Positions 2,435-61,826 of a DNA stretch of 64,000 nucleotides are shown piece after piece. Position numbers and translations under genes: made by a program. The first letter of the stretch is position 1, and each line of letters begins with the position of its first letter. A model generated the notes under the pieces. That model did no database searches. It saw only the letters and a list, made by a program, of their open reading frames with translations, and was not told the DNA's origin. Origin of the DNA: an uncultured Spirochaetaceae bacterium (GTDB taxonomy: Bacteria; Spirochaetota; Spirochaetia; Treponematales; Treponemataceae); assembly GCA_902789325.1 (NCBI GenBank), contig CADANN010000001.1, forward strand, positions 38,024 to 102,023, written 5' to 3'.

Positions 2435-4975
2435 ATGATGAAAATTAAGAAATCTGGAATTGTTATCATCTCGCTGTTTTTTCTGGGTTCTATTGTCCTG
2501 GGTGCCTTTTTGGGATGGTCTGTTTCTGAAACCCGTAACATTATTAATTCTGAATATATAACTGATTTTGATACTGCTCTGCCTACTAAGCTGCTTGATA
2601 TAAATGGTGAAGTAATTACTGAATTTGCTTCTGACGAAAAACGCGAAATCATTGCTTATAACAAGCTGCCACAACAGATGATTGATGCCTTGATTACCCG
2701 CGAGGATAATGTTTTCTTCTCTCATAATGGTTTTAATCTTAAGGCTATTATGCGTGGTGTTGTTGGTATTCTTACCGGCCGTTCACTTGGTGGTGGTTCT
2801 ACCCTCACACAGCAGATTGCAGGTACTCTTTACTGCGACCGTTCAGATAAATCTGTCGTACGAAAACTCAAAGAGCTCTGGTGGGCCATTCAGATGGAAC
2901 GCCGCTATTCTAAAAACGAAATCCTTGAACTTTATCTTAATAAAATCTATTTTGGTGGTGGTACTTACGGAGTTAATGCCGCTTCAAAATATTACTTTGG
3001 ACACGGTGCTACAGAAATCACTCCGGCAGAAGCTGCAATTCTTGTAATTCAGCTTTCGAATCCGGCTTTCTATAATCCTTTTGATCATCCTAACCGTGCT
3101 ATGGACCGTCAGAAATACGTCTTGACTTCTATGGTTGACGCAGGATTCCTTACTCAGGAAGAAGCTGACGAATCTTTTGAAAACTACTGGGCTAACTTTG
3201 ACTACACACGAACTTCAACTTCTGCATACATGATGCGCGATGACAAGGCTCCATGGTTTTCTGAATATGTTCGCCGCGAACTTTCTGGCATGATTTATGG
3301 ATCTGATGATATTTATACTTCAGGCTTTACAGTAAACACAACACTTAACCTTGCTCATCAGCAGATTGCTCAGCAGGTTATGGAGAAATATATTGCCCAG
3401 GCAAACTCAAGATATAAAAAGGAACATTCTTCAAAAACAGGTGTTGCAACAAATGTCTACGTTCCAATGACAGAAATGCTTGCCCTGCTTTTTGATATTC
3501 CTGAATTGAAGGTTAGCGAGCAGCGCACAGAAATTGTTGCAAATAACACTTATGTAAATCAAATAAATCCAGTTCTTGATGTAGTTTCTATGATGACTGG
3601 AACTGAAAAACTCAAGGTAAATATTGTAAACCGCGCAGTTGCAATTGCAAAGCAGAATGAAGAAAAAACAACTATTGAAGGAACAATGGTTGCTCTCGAT
3701 CACTCAAACGGCTATATCGACGCTCTGGTTGGTGGTAGTAAATTTGATTCTGATAATCAGTTTATCCGCGCAACTCAGGCAAAGGTTCAGCCGGGTTCTA
3801 CTTTCAAACCGCTTTATTATTCAGCTGCAATTGATTCCCGCAAGTTTACCCCTACAACTCAGATTTCCGACAGTATGGTTGTATTCCACACTGCAGACGG
3901 TAAACCATATATTCCATTGAACTTCCGTGGTGAATGGGAAGGAAACGTTTCTCTCTGGTATGCTCTTACCCGTTCTATGAACGTTCCATCTCTTAAGATT
4001 CTTGATGGAATCGGCTTTGAAGCGGCAATTGACCGCGCATCAAAACTGCTTGGTATTCCACAGAATGAACTTGAATCACGAAGCTTTGTTCCTGTTTATC
4101 CACTTGGTCTTGGTGTATGTTCAGTTCGTCCTATTGAAATGGCACGCGCATATGCTATATTTGCTAATGGTGGTAAAGAGATTACTCCAATGGCAATCCG
4201 CACTGTTGAAGATAAGAATGGAAATGTAATTTTGAATCCTGAACTTGATATCCGAAAGGAACAGGTTGCTAAGGGAGAAAAGATTCAGGTTATTTCTCCA
4301 CAGACTTCTTTTGTAATGATTAAGTTACTCGAACAGACTGTAAATAACGGTGGTACACTTGCCGCTCAGAAATGGCATTTTGATTACCGCGATGCAAACG
4401 GAAACCGCTATACAATGCCAGCCGGTGGTAAAACTGGTACCACACAGAACTGGGCTGATGCATGGACTTGTGGTATTACTCCATATTACGCAGCCGCATT
4501 CTGGTTTGGATTTGATAAGCCTGGTCAGTCTCTTGGTTTGAATATTACTGGTGCAACTCTTGCCGGTTTTGCCTGGGGTGAATATTTTGATAAGATTCAT
4601 GCAGATTTACCACTTAAAAACTGGATTAAACCTCTTGAAGGTGTAATTGAGTGTACAGTTTGTGCAGACAGTGGTATGATTCTTACAGAATCTTGTGAGC
4701 ACTCAACAACTCAGTGGTATCTTGAGGGAACTCAGCCTACAGAAATTTGTCCTATCCACTCAAGCACTTCTAACTCTGTAATTTCGATTATTCGTCTTGA
4801 AAAAGAGATGTATAAGTCGGGTCAGAGAATGAGTTTTGATTTTGACACTACCCCACTCAGTTTTGATTTGAGTGCGCCACTTGCTTCAGAATATGATTCT
4901 GACGAAGAAGATGAAGAAGAAGAGGAAACGGTAGATAGTACATCGAAATTCGATTACAGTTTCTTGATGGAGTAG
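2435..4975 (+). CDS. class A penicillin-binding protein (PBP1A; glycosyltransferase + transpeptidase)
   Basis: 846 aa. N-terminal TM helix, GT51 motifs (EDxxFxxHxG, GGSTLTQQ, RKxxE), transpeptidase motifs STFK and KTGT, and an acidic tail. Confidence 0.95.
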   Translation: MMKIKKSGIVIISLFFLGSIVLGAFLGWSVSETRNIINSEYITDFDTALPTKLLDINGEVITEFASDEKREIIAYNKLPQQMIDALITREDNVFFSHNGFNLKAIMRGVVGILTGRSLGGGSTLTQQIAGTLYCDRSDKSVVRKLKELWWAIQMERRYSKNEILELYLNKIYFGGGTYGVNAASKYYFGHGATEITPAEAAILVIQLSNPAFYNPFDHPNRAMDRQKYVLTSMVDAGFLTQEEADESFENYWANFDYTRTSTSAYMMRDDKAPWFSEYVRRELSGMIYGSDDIYTSGFTVNTTLNLAHQQIAQQVMEKYIAQANSRYKKEHSSKTGVATNVYVPMTEMLALLFDIPELKVSEQRTEIVANNTYVNQINPVLDVVSMMTGTEKLKVNIVNRAVAIAKQNEEKTTIEGTMVALDHSNGYIDALVGGSKFDSDNQFIRATQAKVQPGSTFKPLYYSAAIDSRKFTPTTQISDSMVVFHTADGKPYIPLNFRGEWEGNVSLWYALTRSMNVPSLKILDGIGFEAAIDRASKLLGIPQNELESRSFVPVYPLGLGVCSVRPIEMARAYAIFANGGKEITPMAIRTVEDKNGNVILNPELDIRKEQVAKGEKIQVISPQTSFVMIKLLEQTVNNGGTLAAQKWHFDYRDANGNRYTMPAGGKTGTTQNWADAWTCGITPYYAAAFWFGFDKPGQSLGLNITGATLAGFAWGEYFDKIHADLPLKNWIKPLEGVIECTVCADSGMILTESCEHSTTQWYLEGTQPTEICPIHSSTSNSVISIIRLEKEMYKSGQRMSFDFDTTPLSFDLSAPLASEYDSDEEDEEEEETVDSTSKFDYSFLME

Positions 4976-5100
4976 CCTAAAATCGAAAATCCGTTAAAAA
5001 CTGAGCTGCGACAGCGGGTCAGTTTAGGATTATCGAAAAAACGGCTCAAGCAGCGAGACTATGCGAGCTGCCTAACGGCGAAAAGAAATCGGAGGTTTTT

Positions 5101-5499: not shown

Positions 5500-6014
5500 A
5501 ACGTACAATAAAATTAGCACTTGTTGCATTCACTCTTCTTTTCTGTTTTACAACTAAAATCTTCGCACTTGGAGCTGGAGCACAGATTGGTGGTGTACCA
5601 GGTCTTTTAATCAATCAGGATGATATCAGCCTGGAAAATATGACTGCCAATGTAACCGGAACCTTAAGGATGGAACGTGTTCCACTTACAGTTGGAAGTG
5701 GCCTTGAGTTCGGTAAAATCTATTCTGATTCTGTTTTCGGCTTTTCTTTATTTGCAGATTATCGAACTATTGATGTTCAGTTGATGAATACCTGGAGCTT
5801 TTATTCCGGCTTTGGTGCAACTGTAAAGTTTTTGACCAATGATTTTGCAGACTGGAGCATTGCAACCGGAGCAAGATTTTTTGCCGGAATGAACTGGCTT
5901 TTTTACGACGGATACCTTGAGTTCTATGTTCAGCAGAATGTGGTTCCGACGTATTTAAACAGTGACTTTATACTTAGTTTGCCGCTTGAGACTGGCGTGC
6001 GAATGCACTTTTAA
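5496..6014 (+). CDS. putative small outer-membrane beta-barrel protein
   Basis: Signal peptide, alternating Gly/aromatic beta-strand pattern and C-terminal Phe. ATGA overlap with the ParB-like gene. Confidence 0.5.
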   Translation: MKRTIKLALVAFTLLFCFTTKIFALGAGAQIGGVPGLLINQDDISLENMTANVTGTLRMERVPLTVGSGLEFGKIYSDSVFGFSLFADYRTIDVQLMNTWSFYSGFGATVKFLTNDFADWSIATGARFFAGMNWLFYDGYLEFYVQQNVVPTYLNSDFILSLPLETGVRMHF

Positions 6015-33072: not shown

Positions 33073-33199
33073 TTTTTTCCTCGCAAAAAACAAAAAGGCG
33101 CCGTAAGAAGAATCCGAAATTTTCAGACTCTTTTTACGGCGCCTTTGCCTTTAAACTAAATTGTTTCTATATTATCGCAAAATGACATATTGTTGTCAA
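33073..33199 (-). promoter_or_regulatory. gltD-purF leader: sigma70 promoter + GGCAAAGG-box terminator hairpin
   Basis: On the minus strand: TTGACA (33199-194), 17-nt spacer, GATAAT (33176-171), box AAGGCAAAGG, hairpin arms at 33146-33134 and 33106-33094, then TTGTTTTTT. A GAGG RBS and the ATG at 33072 follow. Confidence 0.7.
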
Positions 33200-33237: not shown

Positions 33238-35646
33238 CTATTTAGTTTCTGGTGTGTGCCACTTCCAGTTTACTACCTCTGGTAAATCTTCACCGAGTTC
33301 TGAGATGTGCTGCTTGTGAGCAACGAGAGTATCATTCATCTTCTGAACGAGGTGGCTAGATTTGTTTCCAAGCTGTGGCAAGTACTGCAATGCAGCCTTT
33401 ACGAGGTCGAAGCGGTCAATCTTGTTCTGTACGCGCATGTCGAACGGAGTTGTGATTGTACCTTCTTCGTGGTATCCATAAACGTGGAGGTTGCGGTTTT
33501 CACGAAGATATGTGAGCTCGTGTACCAGCTTTGGATATCCATGGAATGCGAAAATGATTGGCTTGTCCTTTGTGAACAAAGCATTGTATTCGCTTTCGCT
33601 GAGTCCGTGTGGATGCTGATGATCGCTCTGGAGTTTCATCAAGTCTACAACGTTTACAAAGCGGATCTTGAGTTCTGGAAGATTATCGCGAAGGATTGTT
33701 GTAGCAGCAAGTGCTTCAAGAGTTGGTGTATCACCACAACAAGCCATTACGAGATCTGGTTCCTGACCATCATCGTTAGAAGCCCAGTCCCAGATACCAA
33801 TACCCTGAGTACAGTGTTTAACTGCCTGATCCATTGTAAGCCACTGGCAGCTTGGGTGCTTAGAAGCAACAATTACGTTTACGTAGTTCTTGCTCTTAAT
33901 ACAGTGGTCGAATGTAGAAAGAAGACAGTTTGTATCAGGCGGCAAGTACATACGTACAACGTCAGCCTTTTTGTTAGAAATATGATCGAGGAATCCTGGA
34001 TCCTGGTGTGTGAATCCGTTGTGGTCCTGCTGCCATACGTTTGATGTAAGGATGAGGTTCAAAGATGCGATTGGTGCACGCCACTTGAGCTGTGAGCAAA
34101 CCTTGAGCCATTTTGCATGCTGAGAAGCCATTGAGTCGATGATACGAATGAATGCTTCGTAGCTTGCGAAGAATCCGTGACGACCTGTAAGGAGGTAACC
34201 TTCGAGCCAACCTTCACACATATGCTCAGAAAGGTATGAGTCCATGATACGTCCGTTGTGAGCGAGCTTATCATCTGTTGGAAGGATTTCTGCGTTGAAG
34301 TCGCGGTTTGTAGCTTCGAATGCAGCATAAAGTCTGTTAGACATAGACTCATCTGGTCCGAAGATACGGAAGTTCTTGTTGTCTTCGTTGAGCTTAAGAA
34401 CATCGCGGATATAGTTTCCGAGCTCTTTCATATCCTGTGCTTTTACGCTACCAGGAGTTTTAACTTCGAGAGCATATTTTTTGAAGTCAGGTGTGCGGAG
34501 GTCCTTAAGAAGGTTACCACCGTTTGCATGTGGGTTAGCAGAAATTCTGTGTTCACCCTTTGGAGCGATAGCCTGGATTTCAGCCTTGAGGCGGTAGTTC
34601 TCATCAAAGAGTTCTTCCGGCTTGTAAGACTTGAGCCATGCTTCGAGTTCCTTCATGTGTTTTGCTTCATTTGGATCTGGCTTTGTGAGGTCGATAGGAA
34701 CCTGGTGTGCACGGAATGAGTTTTCAATTGGAAGGCCGTCGTCGTTGAACTTTGGACCTGTCCATCCCTTTGGAGTGCGGAGAACGATCATAGGCCAGAA
34801 TGGGCGCTCTGTTTTTCCGTTTACACGAGCATCGCGCTGAATCTTCTGAATCTTTTCAATACACTTATCAACAGCAGCAGCCATTGCGTGGTGTACTTCC
34901 ATGTGGTCTGTATCTGGAGTTGCTTCAACAAAGATTGGATCCCAACCACAACCGTGGAAGAAGCTCTTTACTTCGTCCTTAGAAATACGTGCAAATATAG
35001 TTGGGTTAGAAATCTTATATCCGTTGAGGTGGAGGATTGGAAGAACTGCACCGTCTGTTACAGGATTAAGGAATTTGTTTGAGTGCCATGCTGTAGCCAA
35101 TGGACCAGTTTCTGCTTCACCATCACCTACGATACAAGTTGTAATGAGGTTAGGATTATCAAATACAGAACCGAATGCGTGAGCGATAGAATAACCAAGC
35201 TCACCACCTTCGTTGATAGAACCTGGAGTTTCTGGAGCAACGTGGCTTGAGATTCCGCCTGGGAATGAGAACTGCTTGCAAAGACGGCTCATACCTTCTT
35301 CATCAAGACTTACGTTTGGATAAACCTCTGAATAGTAACCTTCAAGATAAGAGTTAGCTACGAAGAAGTTTCCTCCATGTCCTGGACCTGAAATAAGAAT
35401 CATGTCGAGATTGTATTTTGTGATAGCTCGGTTCAAGTGAGTATACACAAAGTTCTGGCCTGGAACTGTACCCCAGTGACCAACGATTTTTGTTTTTACC
35501 TGATCGCGTGTTAAAGGCTTTCTCAAAAGAGGATTCTCTTTCATGTAAAGCTGGGCAGCTGCAAGATAGTTAGTTGCACGCCAGTACTGATCAAGTCGGT
35601 TGAAGTATTCTTCTGAATCTTCAATGCGTTTTGCCTTTTTTGACAT
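33238..35646 (-). CDS. xfp: xylulose-5-P/fructose-6-P phosphoketolase
   Basis: 802 aa. Typical N-terminus ([14 protein letters not shown]...HWGTxPG) and a ThDP motif region GDGEAETG. Confidence 0.95.
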
Positions 35647-40506: not shown

Positions 40507-40713
40507 CTAACGTTCCTTATCATCCACCATAAAAAAAAGCCGCGGACACAATTACGCACCAAACGTAAAAGTTACCGCGGCCTCTTTGCCGGCTTAGAGA
40601 TTTTCACAAAACAAAAAAGGCCGTAGACACAATCTCATACCCATATGAAATTATATCTACGACCTCTTTGCCGTAATTTAAGTAATACTACAAAAATGCA
40701 GTGTTACTGTCAA
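40507..40713 (-). promoter_or_regulatory. gltB leader: sigma70 promoter + two tandem GGCAAAGAGG-box terminator hairpins
   Basis: On the minus strand: TTGACA (40713-708), 17-nt spacer, TAGTAT (40690-685).
- Hairpin 1: box ACGGCAAAGAGG (40674-663), arms 40664-56 and 40627-19, then T6.
- Hairpin 2: box CCGGCAAAGAGG (40592-581), arms 40581-75 and 40545-39, then T8.
The flanking gene is divergent, so these hairpins cannot terminate an upstream gene. Confidence 0.75.
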
Positions 40714-41356: not shown

Positions 41357-42910
41357 TTATCCATTCAATATTTTTGCTGCCTCGTTTTCCCCATTTGATG
41401 TTGAATAAAAATAAGGTGTTTCAGCATCAAATTCGCCGGCACAGGTATCAACCATTTTGAAGGATATCGGAGGATACAACATTCCGCTGTTACTTTTTTC
41501 AGCCTTTGTAATATTTTCCAGCTTGCACAGGAACCACTCGTCAATTTTTGTAATTTCGTGAATCTGTTCAACTGAATAAAGTCCGCGTTTAAGGGCCTGA
41601 TAAATTGCAAATATTCTCTGATCGGTGCACTGTCCTACCCGTTCGCGTATTTTCTCATCACCTTCTTTTTCAAAGGCAGGAAGATTCAAATCTTTTACAC
41701 CAACTTCAAGTCCTCGGGCAGCCTTAAGAATTGCTTCTTCAAAGTTCTGGCCAATTGCCATAACTTCACCAGTTGCCTTCATCTGTGTACCAAGCTTACG
41801 TGCAGCATAAACAAATTTATCGAACGGGAACTTTGGCATTTTTACAACTACATAGTCGAGAACAGGTTCAAAGCAGGCTTTTGTCTTCTTTGTTACAAAG
41901 TTTGGAATTTCATCCAGAGTAAAGCCAACTGCTATGAGGGCTGCAACCTTTGCGATTGGATAGCCGGTTGCTTTTGAAGCGAGCGCTGAAGAACGCGAAA
42001 CACGAGGGTTTACCTCAATTACCGCATATTCAAAGCTGTCTGGATTAAGTGCAAACTGACAGTTACAGCCACCTTCAATTTCGAGGGCGCTGATGATATT
42101 GAGTGCGGCACTTCGCAGCATCTGATATTCTTTATCTGCAAGAGTCACAGTTGGTGCAATTACGATTGAGTCACCAGTATGAACACCAACAGGATCAAAG
42201 TTTTCCATAGAACAGACAGTAATTACGTTAGCATTGCTGTCCCGCATTACTTCAAACTCAACTTCTTTCCATCCGCTGATACATTTTTCTACAAGTATCT
42301 GATGAATTGGCGAACGATGAAGTCCGTTATGAGCAATTTCGTCCAGTTCGCGGTCGTTATTTACAATACCACCACCTGTTCCACCAAGGGTAAAGGCCGG
42401 ACGGATAATTGCAGGAAAGCCGATTTCGTTATGAACAAAATCAGCAGCATCTTCGTAAGTAGTTACAACTTTTGAAGGAATACAAGGCTCTCCTATTGCT
42501 TCCATTGTATCTTTGAACATCTGGCGGTCTTCTGCCTTGTCGATTGTTTCAGGGCGTGCACCAAGCAGCTGAACATTATGGCTCGCAAGAAAGCCGGATT
42601 TTGCAAGCTCCATACTGAGGGTCAATCCCGTCTGACCGCCAAGTGTTGAAAGCAGGCTGTCTGGTTTTTCTTTTTCGATGATTCTTTCAAGAGTTCGCAG
42701 AGTAAGCGGTTCCATGTAAATCTCATCTGCCATTTCGTGGTCAGTCATTAAAGTTGCCGGATTTGAGTTTACAAGACAAACTTCAAGTCCAAGAGATTTC
42801 AGAGCCTTACATGCCTGATTTCCGGCATAGTCAAATTCCGCTGCCTGTCCAATTACAATCGGACCGGAACCAATAATCATTACTTTGTGAATATTTTTAT
42901 TGAGAGGCAC
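41357..42910 (-). CDS. carB: carbamoyl-phosphate synthase large subunit, N-terminal half only
   Basis: 517 aa. It begins [25 protein letters not shown] and ends at ...[20 protein letters not shown], the junction between the two homologous CarB halves. A stop follows, and then a convergent GNAT gene. Confidence 0.9.
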
Positions 42911-44042: not shown

Positions 44043-44172
44043 TTTGACTCCTATGTCAGGCCTCTATGGCCAAAAAAAAAAGACGCTCATTCCATTTGAA
44101 GACAATAAGTCTATAAATCGAATGAACGTCTTTGTTCTTTAATGTTATACAGTGTTTACAAATTGTGGTCAA
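44043..44172 (-). promoter_or_regulatory. carAB leader: sigma70 promoter + A-tract/terminator hairpin
   Basis: On the minus strand: TTGACC (44172-167), 17-nt spacer, TATAAC (44149-144). Then AGAACAAAGACGTTCATTC...GAATGAGCGTCTTT (arms 44133-120 and 44092-079) plus T10, followed by an AGGAG RBS. Confidence 0.65.
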
Positions 44173-46334: not shown

Positions 46335-46552
46335 TTGACAAAAATATTTAGAAATTGTATAAAACAAATAACAAACGACAATGAGGTCGCAGAACAGGGG
46401 TTTCTGCGACCTTTTTTGTTTTAAAATCATTCCGACTGCCGTTGGCATGTTCGGAGAAACTAACAATCGGCAAAGGCGCTGCGTTTTCATTTTGATGTAC
46501 ACAGAATGAAAGTGCGGCGTTTTTTTTGTCGGTTATATATAAGGATAATAAA
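46335..46552 (+). promoter_or_regulatory. type III GS leader: sigma70 promoter + two tandem box/terminator hairpins
   Basis: TTGACA (46335-40), 17-nt spacer, TATAAA (46358-63).
- Hairpin 1: ACGACAATGAGG box, arms GGTCGCAGAA (46385-94) and TTCTGCGACC (46402-11), then T6.
- Hairpin 2: TCGGCAAAGG box (46468-76), arms 46477-91 and 46505-19, then T8.
RBS AAGGA, ATG at 46553. Confidence 0.75.
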
Positions 46553-50679: not shown

Positions 50680-50931
50680 TTGACAACTTTTTTTAATTTC
50701 GGTATAAAGAAAAACATCTAAGGCAAAGAGGTCGTAGGAATAATCCTTCGACCTCTTTTCTTTTTTAACAAACATGGCAATGGCGCTGCGTATACTACGT
50801 TTCTAACTAACGTTAGTTATCCGCAGCGTTTATTTTTTACGGCGATGATGTCGGGCATTTGTGCACAATGTCTGAAATTGTCGCCGTTATTTTTTTAATG
50901 TGATTTTCGAACTTACACAGGAGGTATACAG
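50680..50931 (+). promoter_or_regulatory. amtB leader: sigma70 promoter + three tandem terminator hairpins
   Basis: TTGACA (50680-85), 17-nt spacer, TATAAA (50703-08).
- Hairpin 1: AAGGCAAAGAGGTCG, arms 50725-34 and 50749-58, then T-run.
- Hairpin 2: ATGGCAATGGCGCTGCG (50774-90) pairing with CGCAGCG (50822-28), then TTTATTTTTT.
- Hairpin 3: ACGGCGA (50839-45) pairing with TCGCCGT (50881-87), then TATTTTTTT.
RBS AGGAGG, ATG at 50932. Confidence 0.75.
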
Positions 50932-52602
50932 ATGAGTGAAGTTTGGAGTGTATGGTTTTTAATCGGCGCTGCACTTGTATTCTTTATGCAGTGCGGTTTT
51001 GCAATGGTTGAAACAGGTTTTACAAGAGCGAAGAATGCGGGAAACATCATTATGAAAAACCTGATGGATTTCTGTATCGGAACTCCTATGTTTATGCTTC
51101 TCGGCTTTGGTTTAATGATGAGCGAGAACTATTTCTTTGGTGTAATTGGTAAACCAAATATGCAGTTGTTTACAAACTTTGCTGAAGGCGACTGGTCAGC
51201 ATTCGTTTTCAATCTTGTATTCTGTGCAACAGCTGCTACAATCGTATCTGGTTCTATGGCAGAACGAACTAAGTTCTCTGCTTACTGTATCTACTCTGCT
51301 GTAATTTCTGCAGTTGTTTACCCTATCGAAGCTGGTTGGGTTTGGAACTCACAGGGCTGGCTCGTTCAGCTTGGTTTCGTAGACTTCGCTGGTGGTGCTG
51401 CAATTCACTCAGTAGGAGGGACCGCTGCATTGATTGGTGCAATCTTCCTTGGTCCTCGTATTGGAAAGTATGATTACGATAAGGACGGAAAGGTAACAAA
51501 GGTACACGCTATTCCTGGTCACTCTTTGACACTCGGTGCTCTCGGAACTTTCATCCTCTGGTTCGGATGGTACGGCTTCAACGGAGCTGCTTGTACACAG
51601 CTTCTTGGAGTTGGAGGTCTTGCTGCAGTATTCACAACAACAACAATTGCCCCTGCAGTTGCTGCTGTTACTACAATGATTTTTACCTGGGTAAAGAACG
51701 GTAAGCCTGATGTTTCTATGACACTCAACGCTTCACTTGCTGGTCTTGTTGCTATTACTCCTACATGTGCCACAGTTGATGCACTTGGTGCAAGCATCAT
51801 CGGTATCGTTTCAGGTATTATCGTTGTAGTAGTTGTTGAATTCCTTGATATGAAGCTCCACATTGATGACCCGGTTGGTGCTGTTGCAGTTCACCTTGCA
51901 AACGGTATCTGGGGTACATTAAGTGATGGTTTATTCAACGTTGAAAACGGTGTATTCTACGGTGGCGGTGTAAAGCACCTTGGAGTACAGTGTCTTGGTG
52001 AGTTCACAATTGTTGCATGGACAACAGTTTGTATGATTATCACATTCAGCCTTATCAAGAAACTCCATGGACTTCGTGCAAGCCGTGAAGAAGAAATCAT
52101 CGGTCTTGATAAGCTCGAGCACGGAATTGATTCAAGCTACGCAGGATTCATCATGGCTCCACAGGTTCTTGGCGGAGACAGCCCTGCATCAGGAGAAAGC
52201 GTTCCTGTTGAAAAGGCAGTTCCAGTTGCAAAGGCAACAGCTCGTCCAGATGCAAAGTTCCATATGGTTACAATCATTACACGCCAGAGCAAGTTCGACG
52301 AGCTCAAGGCTGCAATGAACGACATCAACGTAACAGGTATGACAGTTACAAACGTACTTGGTTGCGGCCAGCAGCACGGAAACGTTCAGAAGTATCGTGG
52401 TGTTGAAATGGATATGACATTGCTTCCTAAGATTAAGGTTGATATCGTAGTAAGCGAAGTTCCAGTTGATCTTGTTGTAACAGCCGCTAAGGAAGTTCTT
52501 TACACAGGCCACATCGGCGACGGAAAGATTTTCGTATACGATGTTCAGAATGTTGTAAAGGTTCGTACCGGAGAGGAAGGATACGAAGCTTTGCAGGATT
52601 AG
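50932..52602 (+). CDS. amtB: ammonium transporter fused to a C-terminal PII (GlnK/GlnB) domain
   Basis: Residues 1 to ~400 are an Amt/MEP polytopic domain (AGGAAIHSVGG, WFGWYGFN). A Pro/Ala/Ser linker follows. The last ~115 aa are PII-like (FHMVTIITR...T-loop GQQHGNVQKYRG...GDGKIFVYDV). Confidence 0.9.
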   Translation: MSEVWSVWFLIGAALVFFMQCGFAMVETGFTRAKNAGNIIMKNLMDFCIGTPMFMLLGFGLMMSENYFFGVIGKPNMQLFTNFAEGDWSAFVFNLVFCATAATIVSGSMAERTKFSAYCIYSAVISAVVYPIEAGWVWNSQGWLVQLGFVDFAGGAAIHSVGGTAALIGAIFLGPRIGKYDYDKDGKVTKVHAIPGHSLTLGALGTFILWFGWYGFNGAACTQLLGVGGLAAVFTTTTIAPAVAAVTTMIFTWVKNGKPDVSMTLNASLAGLVAITPTCATVDALGASIIGIVSGIIVVVVVEFLDMKLHIDDPVGAVAVHLANGIWGTLSDGLFNVENGVFYGGGVKHLGVQCLGEFTIVAWTTVCMIITFSLIKKLHGLRASREEEIIGLDKLEHGIDSSYAGFIMAPQVLGGDSPASGESVPVEKAVPVAKATARPDAKFHMVTIITRQSKFDELKAAMNDINVTGMTVTNVLGCGQQHGNVQKYRGVEMDMTLLPKIKVDIVVSEVPVDLVVTAAKEVLYTGHIGDGKIFVYDVQNVVKVRTGEEGYEALQD

Positions 52603-56527: not shown

Positions 56528-56572
56528 GTCATTCCGAACTTGTTTCGGAATCTAAATCAAGTTCAGCATGAC
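56528..56572. repeat. double-hairpin repeat element, copy C (second hairpin half-deleted)
   Basis: GTC-ATTCCGAA-CTTGT-TTCGGAAT-CTAAATC-AAGTTCAGCATGAC. It overlaps the last 3 codons and the stop of the minus-strand gene. Confidence 0.75.
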
Positions 56573-57876
56573 TCAACCACACGGATTGCAAAAGTGTCAT
56601 CGGCAATGCAAACTTCGCCGCGTGCAACAATTTTGCCTGAGCGGATAATCTGTGCAAACTCTCCGGCCCTCTGTTTCAAAATAACATAAGAGCCCTGATG
56701 CAGGCCTGCAACTTCTTCTTTTGAAAGGTAAGCGCTTCCAAGCTGAATCGAAATATAATCTTTTTCATCGTAGATGATTTCATTCAACTGAGGATTTTCA
56801 GCAATTCTCATTCCAAAAAGTTCATCAATTGCAACAGTTTTACCAGTGTGAATTACACGGTTCTCATAAACAAGATTTAGTCCTTCATTTTCCTTTTTAT
56901 CCAGAATTAAAATCAAGCCCGGTTCAAGAGAAACATTTTCCGGACGGAATCTTCCAAGTTCAATAAAAACATTGTCCGGCTGCTGATGACTTTTTATATT
57001 TGAAAGATTCTGAAATCTTATTTTTCCACCAACAGTTCCTGCATTTCCGCCGTCACCAAAAAAGCCGCCCATAACCATTTCTTCAAGAAGAGTGTCACTA
57101 AACTGAAGATTTATCCAGCCTTCCTGACCGGCAACATTTCCCTTAAGAGCAAGCAGCAGCATCATGCAATTGTCTTCCTGCCGAGTCGTATTGGAATTTC
57201 CTGCAGCCACAGCTTTTCCCAGCTCAAACTTTTCGTCAGAAACCTTCCCGTCTGTGCGCCGACAGATTTCTTCCTTAAGCATTCCTGTTACAGTTTTTAC
57301 AAAATAATTCTTAAAAACATCAATATCAAATTCAGTAATGGCCTCGTATTTCGTGCAATCCTGTTTGAGCAGTGCCTTTGCAATCAGAGCATCTGCTTCA
57401 ATAGTAAAACCTGCATTCGAATAATCAAAATCATAGAAAAAACATTTCTGCGGAATCGAATGTAAAAACTCGGAATTAATCATCTGATCCACAAGTGACA
57501 CAGAAAAATCACAGCGCTCATTCATCATGGCAGTAAATTCATGATTTATAAGACGGCAGATATCCTCGCCCAGAATCCAAAGCTCCCGCTGCATATAACG
57601 CGGATAACGGTCTGGCTGGCGGAAGTTATACTCCTTAATTTTCTTTCCGCTCACATCCTGACTCACAGGCAATTCGCCGTTCATAATCGACTCAACTTCA
57701 ACTCCAAATACTTCGGCAAGTTTAGGAAGTACTGTCACATCCGGGCAACCTTCACCACGCTCCCACTTTGAAACAGCTTTGTCGGTTACATTACATTGTT
57801 CTGCAAGTTCCTTTTGAGTAAGTCCCTTTCGATTTCGTAATTCATAAATCAAAAATCCAGTTTTTTCTGCATTCAT
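56563..57876 (-). CDS. XRE-type HTH fused to FliM-like middle domain and FliN/SpoA-like C-terminal domain
   Basis: - HTH: LRNRKGLTQKELAEQCNVTDKAVSKWERGE.
- FliM-like segment: IKEYNFRQPDRYPRYMQRELWILGEDICRLINHEFTAMM...
- FliN-like end: GSYVILKQRAGEFAQIIRSGKIVARGEVCIADDTFAIRVVE.
The start follows an AAGGAG RBS. Confidence 0.75.
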   Translation of the reverse strand: MNAEKTGFLIYELRNRKGLTQKELAEQCNVTDKAVSKWERGEGCPDVTVLPKLAEVFGVEVESIMNGELPVSQDVSGKKIKEYNFRQPDRYPRYMQRELWILGEDICRLINHEFTAMMNERCDFSVSLVDQMINSEFLHSIPQKCFFYDFDYSNAGFTIEADALIAKALLKQDCTKYEAITEFDIDVFKNYFVKTVTGMLKEEICRRTDGKVSDEKFELGKAVAAGNSNTTRQEDNCMMLLLALKGNVAGQEGWINLQFSDTLLEEMVMGGFFGDGGNAGTVGGKIRFQNLSNIKSHQQPDNVFIELGRFRPENVSLEPGLILILDKKENEGLNLVYENRVIHTGKTVAIDELFGMRIAENPQLNEIIYDEKDYISIQLGSAYLSKEEVAGLHQGSYVILKQRAGEFAQIIRSGKIVARGEVCIADDTFAIRVVESC

Positions 57877-57962
57877 AATAATTCTCCTTAGCAGTTTCCC
57901 GCTTACATTCAAAATCGTAACACGGAAGCTGCAGTCTGTAACCCGACGTGTAGTTTAACAGA

Positions 57963-57986
57963 GTAGAATTCTAAGTAGAGTTCTAC
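57963..57986. promoter_or_regulatory. tandem palindromic half-sites upstream of the HTH-FliM/N gene (operator candidate)
   Basis: GTAGAATTCTA-A-GTAGAGTTCTAC. TAGAATTCTA is a perfect 10-bp palindrome. The site lies about 90-110 bp upstream of the start codon. Confidence 0.35.
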
Positions 57987-58172
57987 TGAAAAACAACTGA
58001 TTTTACAGTCAATTCTTCAAATTTCTACACACAACTCTACTTAAGCATAACATGAATACTGTAACTTTCAATAAAAAAATCAGTTATTTAGATGATTTTA
58101 AGTGACATTATTATTTTTTTTATATTCTACAAAGGTCTAAATAAGATTTAATAACATAAGATTCAAAAACTA

Positions 58173-58456
58173 TTGCAAATCAACGTTTAAAACGATAATA
58201 TAGTAGAAACGACAAAGAGGTCGTAGATAAAATCCTTGAAAACAACAGGGGTTCTGTCTACGACCTCTTTTTTTTATTTGTGAAAAGGAGGAAAAGGACC
58301 GTCCAAAATCAATTTGGAAGATTCTAAAAAGTTGCTCCACGTATTCGCAACTTTTTTTAACGAATCTTCGATAGACCGCATGAACATTTTCGGGTTGAAA
58401 CCTAAAATTGCTTCACAGCGGTTCAGCAATTTTTTTACGGTTTCTTCGATAAGAGT
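58173..58456 (+). promoter_or_regulatory. asnB-carB'-pyrG-glnA leader: sigma70 promoter + three tandem terminator hairpins
   Basis: TTGCAA (58173-78), 17-nt spacer, TAATAT (58196-201).
- Hairpin 1: ACGACAAAGAGGTCGTAGA, arms 58214-27 and 58257-70, then T8.
- Hairpin 2: AAAAAGTTGC (58326-35) and GCAACTTTTT (58347-56).
- Hairpin 3: AAAATTGCT (58404-12) and AGCAATTTT (58425-33), then TTT.
ATG at 58457. The upstream gene is divergent. Confidence 0.75.
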
Positions 58457-60247
58457 ATGTGTGGTTTTGTAGGATGCTTTGATTTGAACTCAGGTAGCGC
58501 GCCTATTGCAGAAGGCTTGAAAGAAGAACTTCGTGCGCAGGTTCTGGAGATGTCTAAGAAAATTCGTCACCGTGGTCCAGACTGGAGCGGTGTTTATACC
58601 GGTAATAATGCTATTTTAAGCCATGAACGTCTTTCAATCGTAGACCCACTTTCAGGAAAACAGCCTTTGGTCAGCGATGATGAAAAAATCATTCTTGCCG
58701 CAAACGGTGAAATCTACAATCACAAGGAAATCCGAGCAAAGTTTGATGGTTCATATAAGTTCAGAACTGGAAGTGACTGCGAAGTTATTATTCCTCTTTA
58801 TAAAAAATACCGCAAATCTGGCGATTTCACAAAGATGATTGAAGAGCTTTCGGGTATCTTCGCATTCGCACTTTATGACAGCGAACACGACACATATCTG
58901 ATTGCCCGCGACGAAATCGGTGTTATTCCACTATATCAGGGCTGGGACAAAGCAGGCCGCTATTATGTTGCAAGCGAACTCAAAGCTCTCGAAGGCGACT
59001 GCCAGACAATTGAAGAATTCCCTAATGGAAGTTATTTATACAGCGGCCGTCATGCTGAACTTGTTTCAGCATCAACTGATGAGACCCCGAAACCAATCCG
59101 CTGGTATCACCGCAACTGGGAATCATATGAAAGCGTAAAATCAGCCCCAAAAGCAACCGACGAAAAAGGCGAAGTAATCAACCCAAGCGTAATCGAAAAA
59201 GTACGTAACGGACTCGAAACTGCAGTAAAAGCCCAGTTGATGTCAGACGTTCCTTACGGCGTACTTCTTTCCGGCGGTCTCGACTCATCAATCATCGCAG
59301 CAATCACACAAAAATACAGCAAAAAACGTATTGAAACAGACAGCAAGGAAGCAGCCTGGTGGCCACAGCTCCACTCATTCGCAGTTGGACTTGAAGGTTC
59401 TCCAGACCTTATCGCTGCTCAAAAGGCCGCAGACTATATCGGAACCGTTCACCATGAAGTACACTTTACAATTCAGGAAGCACTCGATGCTCTCCCTGAT
59501 GTAATTTACCACATCGAAACTTACGACATCACAACAGTTCGTGCCTCTACCCCTATGTATCTGCTTGCGCGTGTAATCAAATCTATGGGAATCAAGATGG
59601 TTCTTTCGGGCGAAGGAAGTGACGAGCTCTTTGGTGGTTACCTTTACTTCCACAAGGCTCCAAATGCACAGGAGTTCCATGAAGAACTTGTACGTAAAAT
59701 GAGTAAACTTCATCTTTACGACTGTCTCCGTGCAAACAAATCTCTTATGGCATGGGGTGTTGAAGGCCGCGTTCCATTCCTTGATAAAGACTTTATCGAC
59801 ATCGCAATGGGCCTCAACCCAAGTGATAAAATGAACATCAAATTACCAGATGGTAAACAGAGAATGGAAAAATGGATTCTCCGTAAAGCCTTTGAAGATC
59901 TTCTTCCAGAAAGCATTGCATGGCGCCAGAAGGAACAGTTCTCAGATGGTGTAGGCTATAACTGGATTGATACCCTCAAAAAGATGACAGAAGAAAAGGT
60001 AAGCGACGCAGAATTTGCACGCCGCGAAAACCGCTTCCCTGTAAATCCTCCAAAAACAAAAGAGGAATATTACTACCGCGAAATCTACAGCCGCCTCTTC
60101 CCAAGCGACAGTGCAGCACGTTGTGTTCCACACGAAGCCGGAGTTGCATGTTCAACAGCAAAAGCCCTCGAATGGGATGCAGCATGGAAGACTATGGATG
60201 AACCGAGCGGACGCGCAATTGCAGGAGTTCACGATAATGCCTACTAA
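58457..60247 (+). CDS. asnB: asparagine synthase (glutamine-hydrolysing)
   Basis: N-terminal MCGFVG (Ntn Cys) and PP-loop SDVPYGVLLSGGLDSS. 596 aa. Confidence 0.96.
   Translation: MCGFVGCFDLNSGSAPIAEGLKEELRAQVLEMSKKIRHRGPDWSGVYTGNNAILSHERLSIVDPLSGKQPLVSDDEKIILAANGEIYNHKEIRAKFDGSYKFRTGSDCEVIIPLYKKYRKSGDFTKMIEELSGIFAFALYDSEHDTYLIARDEIGVIPLYQGWDKAGRYYVASELKALEGDCQTIEEFPNGSYLYSGRHAELVSASTDETPKPIRWYHRNWESYESVKSAPKATDEKGEVINPSVIEKVRNGLETAVKAQLMSDVPYGVLLSGGLDSSIIAAITQKYSKKRIETDSKEAAWWPQLHSFAVGLEGSPDLIAAQKAADYIGTVHHEVHFTIQEALDALPDVIYHIETYDITTVRASTPMYLLARVIKSMGIKMVLSGEGSDELFGGYLYFHKAPNAQEFHEELVRKMSKLHLYDCLRANKSLMAWGVEGRVPFLDKDFIDIAMGLNPSDKMNIKLPDGKQRMEKWILRKAFEDLLPESIAWRQKEQFSDGVGYNWIDTLKKMTEEKVSDAEFARRENRFPVNPPKTKEEYYYREIYSRLFPSDSAARCVPHEAGVACSTAKALEWDAAWKTMDEPSGRAIAGVHDNAY
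59049..59093. repeat. double-hairpin repeat element inside asnB (copy B, 3'-truncated)
   Basis: GTC-ATGCTGAA-CTTGT-TTCAGCAT-CAACTGATGAG-ACCCCGAA-AC. It is translated in frame as RHAELVSASTDETPK. Confidence 0.8.
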
Positions 60248-61826
60248 TGATTCTGCAAAATCAAAAGGAACAATCGTAGTTCTTGGTTCAGGCCCAATCC
60301 GAATCGGTCAGGGAATTGAGTTCGACTACGCGAGCGTTCAGTGTGTACGCGCCCTCAAAAAACTTGGGTATGAAGTTGCAATCATCAACAACAACCCGGA
60401 AACTGTAAGTACCGACTTTGATACTGCAGACCGTCTTTATTTTGAACCACTCACTCCACCAGATGTTATGAACGTAATCAACGATGAAAAACCTCTTGGT
60501 GTAGTAGTTGCATTTGGCGGTGGAACAGCAATTAAACTTGCAAAATATCTGGACAGTCAGGGAGTACGTATTCTCGGAACTTCTGCAGATGCAATCGACC
60601 TTGCCGAAGACCGTGAACGTTTTGAAGAACTCTGCGACCGCCTCAACATTAAGCGCCCTCGCGGACTTACAGTGTTTACAGAAGTAGAAGCCCTCGAATC
60701 TGCTGCAAAAATCACCTACCCTGTTCTCATGCGACCAAGCTACGTACTTGGCGGTCAGAACATGATTGTTGCCCGCAACAATGCAGATGTAAAAGAATAC
60801 ATGAAAATCATTCTGCGTCAGGGAATTGAAAATCCGGTTCTTATCGACAAATATATGGAAGGAACTGAGCTCGAAGTAGACTGTATCTGCGACGGCGAAA
60901 ATGTTTTGATTCCTGGAATTATGGAACACGTTGAGCGCACTGGTATTCACTCAGGTGACTCAATTGCAGTTTATCCAGGTCAGTTCACTCCAGAAATTGA
61001 AGAAAAAATCGTTCGTCAGTCTACAGACCTTGCACTTGCACTTGGAACAAAAGGTCTTGTAAATATTCAGTATCTTATTTACGACAATGATCTTTATATT
61101 ATCGAAGCAAATCCACGTTCAAGCCGTACCGTTCCTTACCTTAGTAAGGTTTCTGGTGTACCAATGATTGACCTTGCAACCCGCGCCATGCTCGGAGAAA
61201 AAGTTCGTGAACTTGGTTATGGAACAGGTCTTTACCGTAAACCAGATTATTGTGCCGTAAAAGTTCCAGTATTCAGTTTTGAAAAACTGATGGATGTGGA
61301 TACACATCTTGGCCCGGAAATGAAATCAACTGGTGAAGTTCTTGGCATTGCCCCTACCCGCGAAGAAGCACTCTTTAAAGGAATGGTTGCTGCAGGATGG
61401 AAGATGATTAAAGAAGGCGGCATTCTGTTCTCAGTTCGTGAATCTGACCTTCCGGAACTTCCAGCCCTTGCAAAAAAGTTTTATGATCTTGGCTTTACTC
61501 TTTATGCAACAAGCGGAAATGCCTCAACAATTGAACGCAGTGGTATGCCCGTAACCCACGTTGCAAAAGTTCACGAAAATTACAATGACAATGTAATGAC
61601 TCTTCTGGAAAGCGGAAAAGTTGTTTACGTAGTTTCTACATCTGCAAAAGGACGCGATCCTGTAGCCGAAAGCGTAAAGCTTCGCCGTCTTGCTGTAGAA
61701 CGAGATATTGATTGTCTTACAGCCTTGGACACTGCTAACGCACTCGCAGACTGTCTTGCAAGTCCATACACATTAGATAACGTAAGCGTAGTTGATATCA
61801 ATCACGATTTAAGAATTCATAACTAA
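60237..61826 (+). CDS. carB: carbamoyl-phosphate synthase large subunit, C-terminal half (second ATP-grasp + MGS-like allosteric domain)
   Basis: It starts MPTNDSAKSKGTIVVLGSGPIRIGQGIEFDYASVQ, matching the second CarB repeat, and ends with an MGS-like domain (ILFSVRESD...LYATSGNA). The ATG at 60237 overlaps the asnB stop by 11 nt. The upstream part of the ORF-track ORF overlaps asnB and is discounted. Confidence 0.9.
   Translation: MPTNDSAKSKGTIVVLGSGPIRIGQGIEFDYASVQCVRALKKLGYEVAIINNNPETVSTDFDTADRLYFEPLTPPDVMNVINDEKPLGVVVAFGGGTAIKLAKYLDSQGVRILGTSADAIDLAEDRERFEELCDRLNIKRPRGLTVFTEVEALESAAKITYPVLMRPSYVLGGQNMIVARNNADVKEYMKIILRQGIENPVLIDKYMEGTELEVDCICDGENVLIPGIMEHVERTGIHSGDSIAVYPGQFTPEIEEKIVRQSTDLALALGTKGLVNIQYLIYDNDLYIIEANPRSSRTVPYLSKVSGVPMIDLATRAMLGEKVRELGYGTGLYRKPDYCAVKVPVFSFEKLMDVDTHLGPEMKSTGEVLGIAPTREEALFKGMVAAGWKMIKEGGILFSVRESDLPELPALAKKFYDLGFTLYATSGNASTIERSGMPVTHVAKVHENYNDNVMTLLESGKVVYVVSTSAKGRDPVAESVKLRRLAVERDIDCLTALDTANALADCLASPYTLDNVSVVDINHDLRIHN

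Follow-up and report, generated by a model that had tools for sequence, protein, structure and literature searches.

The leader of the asnB-carB(C)-pyrG-glnA operon, at positions 58173-58456 of a 64-kb contig segment from an uncultured Spirochaetaceae bacterium (hereafter the window), contains three hairpins that are each followed by a run of U residues. The question raised by this locus is whether these hairpins are three terminators of one kind or elements of different origin. The region lies between a divergent gene on the minus strand (56563-57912) and asnB (58457-60247), and as a whole it folds far better than expected by chance (z = -6.4). A first-pass annotation had identified the region as the operon leader with a divergent upstream gene, which agrees with our analysis, and had treated the three hairpins as equivalent. 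We consider it probable that hairpin 1 is an attenuator of the ANTAR/GnfR type, and that hairpins 2 and 3 are an inserted dispersed repeat located outside the switch.

A hexaloop hairpin overlapping the hairpin 1 terminator

The 5' end of the leader contains the following features.

58173-58201, plus strand: sigma-70-like promoter, with TTGCAA at 58173-58178, a 17-nt spacer and TAATAT at 58196-58201
58209-58224, plus strand: predicted antiterminator mini-hairpin, with stem ACGAC 58209-58213 / GUCGU 58220-58224 and hexaloop AAAGAG 58214-58219
58214-58275, plus strand: intrinsic terminator (hairpin 1), with arms 58214-58238 and 58246-58270 and T8 at 58268-58275

The promoter TTGCAA-17-TAATAT claimed in the first-pass annotation was found at these positions. 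It agrees with the consensus at 8 of 12 positions and falls under the threshold of the promoter scan. Most orthologous leaders have a TTGACA-17-TATAAT-like promoter at an equal distance, and near-consensus promoters of this type are located 5-14 nt 5' of the hairpin in orthologous and paralogous leaders. The start of transcription is predicted at about 58207-58209.

Hairpin 1 (57 nt) has a folding free energy (dG) of -34.3 kcal/mol with z = -7.9, and none of 200 shuffled sequences folded as well. It classifies as a Rho-independent terminator, and the terminator scan lists 58247-58268 followed by T8. The mini-hairpin at 58209-58224, which was overlooked in the first-pass annotation, is a putative binding site for an ANTAR regulator. 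Its loop and the 3' strand of its stem lie within the 5' arm of the terminator (58214-58238), and the two folds are thus mutually exclusive. Alone, the mini-hairpin has a dG of -4.7 kcal/mol, and it is the structure predicted for the nascent RNA before the 3' arm of the terminator exists. When the mini-hairpin was enforced, only the apical hairpin was left, 9 nt from the U-tract, with a dG of -18.0 kcal/mol. The deficit amounts to 16 kcal/mol, and a trans-acting factor must therefore hold the antiterminator.

The first-pass annotation correctly described hairpin 1 as present, and explained its base as an A-tract that pairs with the T-tract. However, AAAGAG is kept even where the opposite strand of the terminator is not CUCUUU (e.g. 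at 40587 and 46380), and its conservation is thus not merely due to pairing with the U-tract. A riboswitch or a PyrR site was also considered for hairpin 1 and rejected, given a conserved core of only about 16 nt and no Rfam match. At the gathering threshold, Rfam identified two tRNAs only in the whole window, and at E <= 10 the best matches in region 57850-58600 were chance-level hairpins far below threshold.

The hexaloop family, its genes and a candidate regulator

The sequence of the 5' arm, GAGGTCGTAGA, has 5 matches in the window, as compared to 0.39 expected. Reading of the match sites, followed by a structure-aware scan of the 64 kb, identified nine hexaloop-terminator units, all located 5' of nitrogen-assimilation genes. 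The units are as follows, with gene identities taken from Pfam.

58214, plus strand: one unit, asnB operon
50725 and 50779 (region 50715-50840), plus strand: two units, amtB-PII fusion
46380 and 46472 (region 46370-46520), plus strand: two units, type III glutamine synthetase (GSIII glnA)
44133 (region 44055-44140), minus strand: one unit, carA
40669 and 40587 (region 40520-40680), minus strand: two units, gltB
33146 (region 33085-33150), minus strand: one unit, gltD

At gltB, GSIII and amtB-PII, two complete attenuators are arranged in tandem. For most of the nine units, a near-consensus TTGACA-17-TATAAT promoter is present 5-14 nt upstream. About 40 further copies were found in spirochaete relatives, 5' of asnB, amtB, gltB, carA, carB, GSIII and pyrG, and about 30 spirochaete asnB leaders (from Treponema, Sphaerochaeta and others) share the layout. 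Bacteroidota loci retrieved in the same search represented noise only. The promoter-proximal box-terminator of the first-pass annotation is supported as a genuine, recurrent regulatory terminator.

The hairpin of this family consists of a 3-7 bp stem and a hexaloop RANGRN, with the loop and the 3' strand forming the base of the 5' arm of the terminator. This overlap was observed in all 47 family members. Among the 39 distinct members, loop position 1 is A in 36 (92%) and G in three, A2 is invariant, G4 is present in all 39, and the closing pair is C-G in 38. The stems vary yet pair (ACGAC/GUCGU, GAC/GUC, GUC/GAC, GGC/GCC, AGC/GCU, AAC/GUU and GAAAC/GUUUC). In total, 44 both-side changes were counted in the stems, as compared to 18.4 +/- 4.5 in shuffles (0 of 500 reached this number) and no more than 18 when the partner column was slid. 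As a control, terminator-like sites in the spirochaete loci were compared: at least three flanking pairs were found in 50 of 86 sites with the motif at the 5' base, versus 77 of 1146 sites without it.

Some features of the genes behind the units were recorded. The amtB-PII gene (50932-52602, plus strand) encodes an ammonium transporter and a PII domain in a single open reading frame (ORF) of 556 aa. A phosphoketolase gene (33238-35646, minus strand) is located between gltB and gltD, and because gltD has its own attenuator, the two glutamate synthase subunits are not simply co-transcribed. The large subunit of carbamoyl-phosphate synthase is split, with the N-terminal half next to carA (41357-42910, minus strand) and the C-terminal half in the asnB operon (about 60250-61826, plus strand), each under its own attenuator in the window. 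Among the loci of other genomes and contigs compared with the window, designated by L-numbers, the carA and asnB clusters are merged into one operon in L002, and carB is full-length in L004.

A candidate regulator is encoded near asnB or glnA in the relatives. It is a protein of 188-189 aa whose N-terminus is receiver-like and in which Pfam identifies an ANTAR domain (about 1e-15). Its gene starts 3 nt after glnA in the closest relative, L002, where it closes the asnB-carB(C)-pyrG-glnA operon. In L201, which belongs to the same species (96.6-97.7% DNA identity to the window, PyrG identical), glnA is followed directly by the ANTAR gene (3679-4248, 189 aa). In L018 and L025 the gene directly precedes the asnB leader, and in L005, L008 and L011 it is located downstream of asnB. 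In the window, the leader is followed by asnB, the C-terminal half of carB, pyrG and the start of a type I glnA, inside which the window ends. The four genes counted in the first-pass annotation are thus present, but judging from L201 the operon would have a fifth gene just past the end of the window, encoding the ANTAR regulator inside the operon that it would control. The arrangement resembles the clostridial glnA-nitR, for which a literature search returned noise only. In L201 (2392-3670), glnA was called as two ORFs (191 and 232 aa), to be explained either by a frameshift or an assembly error, or by the gene being a pseudogene in this strain.

Known ANTAR targets have a short stem capped by a hexaloop with A1 and G4, overlap terminators and occur mostly at nitrogen genes including asparagine synthase (Ramesh 2012, PMC3369931). 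In Clostridia and Mahella, the asparagine synthase gene is listed as ANTAR-associated. In Geobacter sulfurreducens, the receiver and ANTAR protein GnfR binds CAGGCAANGGCGCC, overlapping the terminators of nifH, glnK and amtB (Ueki and Lovley 2010, PMC2995071). This sequence, GGC-AANGGC-GCC, has the same hairpin shape as the units described here, and the gltD site in the window, AGGCAAAGGCGCC (33146, minus strand), matches it at 13 of 14 positions. Common to both systems are a conserved site that extends into the 5' side of an intrinsic terminator ahead of nitrogen genes, and a small receiver and ANTAR protein as the regulator (putative in the spirochaetes). The asnB site has the shape and loop positions 1, 2 and 4 in common with the GnfR site, whereas its stem ACGAC/GUCGU and its loop AAAGAG differ. 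The systems also differ in phylum, in promoter (RpoN in Geobacter versus sigma-70-type here) and in targets (nif genes versus the assimilation and amidotransferase genes asnB, gltBD, carA, GSIII and pyrG). Unlike in Geobacter, the regulator gene is here coupled to glnA, and the receiver looks degenerate.

The dual-hexaloop targets of EutV, NasR and AmiR are similar to the units in their short stem, their hexaloop with A1 and G4, and the overlap of their 3' half with the terminator. They are also associated with nitrogen metabolism, with multiple sites per regulon and sometimes several per transcription unit. In contrast, each terminator in the spirochaete units is associated with one hexaloop, located at the extreme 5' end of the transcript and without P1. 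A single hexaloop is the minimal ANTAR binding unit (Walshe 2022, PMC8934654).

Several observations weigh against an attenuator of the ANTAR/GnfR type followed by a neutral repeat. Canonical targets consist of two hairpins joined by a strict linker, and antitermination by EutV depends on both (PMC8934654). No conserved second AxxGxx hexaloop hairpin was found within -45 to +70 of the 47 sites, and with a -10 box 5-14 nt upstream of the hexaloop there is no room for an upstream P1. The covariation set was preselected for at least three pairs, which inflates the percentage of paired positions, although not the diversity of pair types; the comparison with other terminator-like sites serves as an independent control for this bias. 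The ANTAR gene is located outside the window and is known only from the 97%-identical strain and from relatives. In the window clade, the conserved Lys and one residue of the acidic pair are missing from the receiver; phosphorylation may not be its input, and we speculate that the signal is sensed via the adjacent glutamine synthetase (GS). As for hairpins 2 and 3, the structure of the repeat is kept at orthologous positions in the asnB and GSIII leaders, which could mean function rather than neutrality.

We infer binding, signal and direction of regulation as follows. Transcription would begin a few bases before 58209, and the nascent RNA would first fold into the 5-bp hairpin with the AAAGAG hexaloop. 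Without the regulator, the stronger terminator (58214-58270 with U8) would displace the mini-hairpin, and the transcript would end near 58275. An active ANTAR regulator, possibly responding to nitrogen or glutamine limitation, would bind and hold the hexaloop hairpin. The base of the 5' arm of the terminator would then be sequestered, and the RNA polymerase would read into asnB-carB(C)-pyrG-glnA. With the regulator gene at the end of the operon, this would result in positive autoregulation, and the switch shared by gltB, gltD, carA, GSIII glnA and amtB-PII would define a nitrogen-assimilation regulon. On the evidence of the sequence comparisons, hairpin 1 would represent the first case of the ANTAR/GnfR type in this phylum, in a single-hexaloop form and as part of a nine-site regulon. 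ANTAR control of spirochaete genes was not described in the literature searched.

Hairpins 2 and 3 and the displaced ribosome-binding site

The remainder of the leader and the first gene contain the following features.

58285-58291, plus strand: AAGGAGG, apparently the ancestral asnB Shine-Dalgarno (SD) sequence, 165 nt upstream of the ATG
58317-58374, plus strand: repeat module A (hairpin 2), with outer stem GAAGATTC 58317-58324 / GAATCTTC 58362-58369
58326-58335 / 58347-58356, plus strand: inner stem of hairpin 2, with arms AAAAAGTTGC / GCAACTTTTT and an 11-nt loop
58375-58382, plus strand: ACCGCAUG, within the spacer of unit B, a diverged inverted copy of the asnB start region
58397-58456, plus strand: repeat module B (hairpin 3), with outer stem GAAACC 58397-58402 / GGTTTC 58439-58444
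58404-58412 / 58425-58433, plus strand: inner stem of hairpin 3, with a 13-nt loop and a U7-AC-GG junction
58457-60247, plus strand: asnB, glutamine-hydrolysing asparagine synthase (Pfam Asn_synthase 2.9e-89, and GATase_7)

The two further A-tract/T-tract hairpins of the first-pass annotation are present as described, but two features had been overlooked: their outer stems, and the 78-nt tandem direct repeat that the hairpins and their spacers constitute. Module A as a whole has a dG of -17.9 kcal/mol; it contains a conserved CUAAA (58324-58328), a U7 followed by a bulged AAC-G junction, and a tail GAUAG. Module B has a dG of -14.4 kcal/mol, and its tail UUCGAUAAGAGU reaches the ATG. Neither hairpin classifies as a Rho-independent terminator, with loops of 11 and 13 nt and AU-rich stems that contain at most 3-4 G-C pairs, and the terminator scan of the region does not call them despite the U7 runs. 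With a dG of -5 to -9 kcal/mol for the inner hairpins, they would be weak terminators at most. Two other identities were considered and rejected: degenerate hexaloop attenuators, as there is no RANGRN hairpin in either, and a sigma-54 promoter in the TTGC motifs, in which the GG-to-GC spacing is 17-19 and not 12 (by eye).

Hairpins 2 and 3 belong to a dispersed family. The conserved base of the repeat comprises the outer stem, a C-G pair, a 2-nt bulge (AC) on the 3' strand and a UAAA/UUUA pairing. It is combined with a variable inner stem and loop and a tail UUCGAU... or UGCUAU.... The inner stems differ among copies yet always pair, and orthologous copies are present in L002, L003, L031, L139 and L001. 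The first-pass annotation had proposed a comparison with orthologous asnB leaders. In this comparison the layout of hairpin 1 is shared, but hairpins 2 and 3 are patchy, with 0-3 copies per asnB leader.

Three copies: L001, L031
Two copies: the window, L002, L003, L139
One copy: L006, L007
Remnants only: L009, L010
No copy: L004, L005, L011, L017, L032 and all more distant relatives

In L005 (about 5960-6000), UUUUAACGGAUUUU, the conserved 3' junction of the repeat, occurs right after the U-tract of hairpin 1, as a remnant or by coincidence.

Copies are also found at unrelated positions. A third copy in the window (4976-5040, minus strand) directly follows the TAG of a gene for an 846-aa protein and precedes a ParB-like gene. 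In loop and flanks it is almost the same as a copy after amtB-PII in L006, with compensatory changes in the stem (CUGA/UCAG versus GCGA/UCGC). The GSIII leaders of L003, L086, L157 and L186 contain copies, and repeats follow amtB-PII in L003 (sense) and L006 (two copies, antisense), at a site that is empty in the window. In L003 (4170-4360), the last codons of amtB-PII (GYEALQN-stop) are present a second time, in diverged form, behind the repeat that follows the gene, as though insertion had duplicated the 3' end of the gene.

When metagenomes were scanned with a pattern free of any hairpin requirement, 120 stretches were returned. Together with the genome loci, these provided 85 structurally valid copies, in mixed orientation to the neighboring genes with the classes roughly even. 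The TAG of a convergent gene is part of the tail ...TTTTAGGCTA or directly adjoins it in at least 17 cases. Several copies are located between a complete tRNA (Val, Pro, Glu or Met) and a duplicated 30-nt tRNA 3' end, with an inverted copy of the flank upstream of the hairpin. Examples are L117 (1595-1860), L089 (2330-2720) and L151 (1-420), where a complete tRNA (Val-TAC, Pro-TGG) is followed by the repeat and then by the duplicated 30-nt 3' end and a terminator. The inverted junction copy (CUCCCGACAU) is upstream, and the unit of about 195 nt in L151 is itself tandem. These tRNA-linked copies suggest an unusual mechanism of insertion or duplication. They are not tRNA introns or tRNA-like structures, since ARAGORN identified complete tRNAs upstream of the modules and only duplicated 3' halves after them.

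A possible AAGAG duplication flanks one subfamily; elsewhere, the 3' ends of flanking tRNAs or genes are present as long duplications instead. No transposase was identified for the repeat, and no search aimed at transposases was made. The repeat is a dispersed palindromic element of an uncharacterised family in rumen and gut treponemes and, from its distribution, probably mobile. It resembles repetitive extragenic palindromic sequences (REP), bacterial interspersed mosaic elements (BIME) and miniature inverted-repeat transposable elements (MITE) in being an imperfect palindrome of about 60-80 nt with many intergenic copies, both orientations, tandem units and variable presence. Unlike these, it keeps the flanks and the 2-nt bulge while stem and loop vary widely, it often abuts a TAG stop, and some copies have direct and inverted target copies, including 30-nt tRNA 3' ends. 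The attC sites of Treponema integrons (PMC3607928) are from the same genus, 63-68 bp long, more conserved in structure than in sequence and often located right after a stop codon. The repeat ends CCTAAA/TTTAGG(C) also weakly resemble the inverse-core/core GCCTAAC/GTTAGGC. However, the repeat does not show the R''-L''...L'-R' architecture, forms no cassette arrays and is found in both orientations. Inspection against eight T. denticola attC representatives revealed no similarity, with CCTAAA lacking a distal partner in the required order, and attC was rejected.

The insertion of the repeat has a consequence for the ribosome-binding site of asnB. In the relatives without repeats (L004, L005, L011, L017, L032), the SD sequence is located 10-25 nt after the U-tract of hairpin 1 and 5-8 nt before ATGTGTGG. 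In the window, no start codon is found 5-12 nt downstream of AAGGAGG, as the first-pass annotation had noted, and about 150 nt of repeat units lie between this motif and the ATG. The motif had been called unused, but judged by its location it is the positional orthologue of the asnB SD sequence of the relatives, split from the ATG by repeat insertions. The start of asnB is set by the Met-Cys-Gly N-terminus, and ATGTGTGG is kept in all relatives. Cys2 is the catalytic nucleophile of the glutaminase domain in class II amidotransferases, and the start can therefore not shift. A leader peptide or upstream ORF was rejected, since the 52-aa ORF at 58314-58472 and the short ORFs after the SD sequence in L003 and L139 vary in frame and extent.

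We consider it unlikely that the repeat hairpins act on translation, either by bridging the distant SD sequence to the AUG or by sequestering the start region, although some observations point in this direction. No SD sequence adjoins the ATG in leaders with repeats, and the hairpin structure is kept despite sequence turnover. The arrangement SD, 3 nt, hairpin, 9 nt, AUG recurs with different hairpin sequences in the single-repeat leaders L006 and L007 and in the last unit of L001. Folding of the hairpin could plausibly bridge the gap in such leaders. Phage T4 gene 38 has a split ribosome-binding site of this kind, with a stable hairpin between the SD sequence and the AUG. However, the window has two units and long unpaired spacers, and with 25 + 27 + 12 nt left unpaired after folding, as compared to 3 + 9 nt in L006, L007 and L001, bridging is geometrically implausible.

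For sequestration, ACCGCA at 58375-58380 can pair with 58460-58465 (asnB codons 2-3), and this helix is also part of the minimum free energy structure of the window. RNAalifold predicted it in five of five two-unit leaders (pairs 14-19 / 102-107), with one-sided changes that preserve the pairing, but the comparison rests on five close relatives. An inverted copy of the downstream flank also accompanies the repeats at tRNA 3' halves (L117, L089), and the helix may thus be a by-product of insertion.

It is improbable that the leader is a multi-stage attenuator in which three regulated terminators follow one another and belong to the asnB operon alone, as the first-pass annotation may be read. 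Consistent with this reading, U7-U8 follows all three hairpins, gltB, GSIII and amtB in the window do carry two attenuators in tandem, and the GSIII leader of L003 has a repeat module where the window has its second hexaloop attenuator. In contrast to hairpin 1, however, hairpins 2 and 3 have neither the hexaloop motif nor an alternative antiterminator, and they are poor terminators by loop size, stem composition and the scan. They are absent from many orthologous leaders (L004, L005, L011 and others), and the repeat occurs in both orientations at unrelated loci. In L002, repeats are located within the operon, between the two halves of carB-dependent functions, without hairpin 1. In the reading that we favour, in which hairpins 2 and 3 are an inserted repeat, they may add some weak termination and/or occlude the start region through the helix 58375-58380 / 58460-58465.

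Remaining alternatives, the host and implications

Two other explanations concern hairpin 1 itself. That it terminates a gene for a small RNA, with asnB transcribed from another promoter, is very improbable. The promoter, hairpin and U8 would give a stable hairpin RNA of about 65 nt, and a weak promoter-like match is present at 58381-58408. However, promoter-like matches in the region are at chance level (17 versus 14.3 expected), and all nine units are located immediately 5' of nitrogen genes and co-oriented with them, without any other consensus promoter. The arrangement is conserved across genera, and the conserved alternative hairpin is explained by attenuation and not by a small RNA. We give least credence to a DNA operator for a nitrogen repressor (inverted repeat ACGAC-N6-GTCGT, +1 to +16): the inverted repeat is located where repressors commonly bind, but the half-sites vary freely (GAC/GTC, GTC/GAC, GGC/GCC, AAC/GTT, GAAAC/GTTTC) around a conserved spacer. 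An operator would show the reverse, whereas this pattern is characteristic of an RNA hairpin, and a terminator accompanies the box in every case.

AsnB is 92% identical to sequences from Treponema metagenome-assembled genomes and 88% identical to T. zioleckii, and the host is a rumen or gut Treponema. The divergent neighbor of the leader (56563-57912, minus strand) is an unusual fusion of an XRE-type HTH_3 domain with the flagellar switch domains FliM and FliN.

A broader interpretation, which we regard as possible but doubtful, combines an entire spirochaete nitrogen-assimilation regulon under minimal, single-hexaloop ANTAR control with a bulged-hairpin repeat that represents a new kind of mobile element. 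The regulator would then be an ANTAR protein with a degenerate receiver, translationally coupled to GS and possibly sensing glutamine via GS rather than through phosphorylation. The repeat may copy its flanks in direct and inverted orientation, and may sit between an SD sequence and an AUG without abolishing translation.

Hairpins with U-tracts that belong to such repeats are prone to be mis-annotated as terminators or attenuators. The repeat can also come between a gene and its ribosome-binding site, so that the mode of asnB translation comes into question. Nitrogen regulation has hardly been characterised in Treponema or other spirochaetes, and the window offers a testable regulon of nine attenuators and one regulator. 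It also provides a natural test of whether one hexaloop suffices for ANTAR antitermination, a question left by the structural work on EutV.

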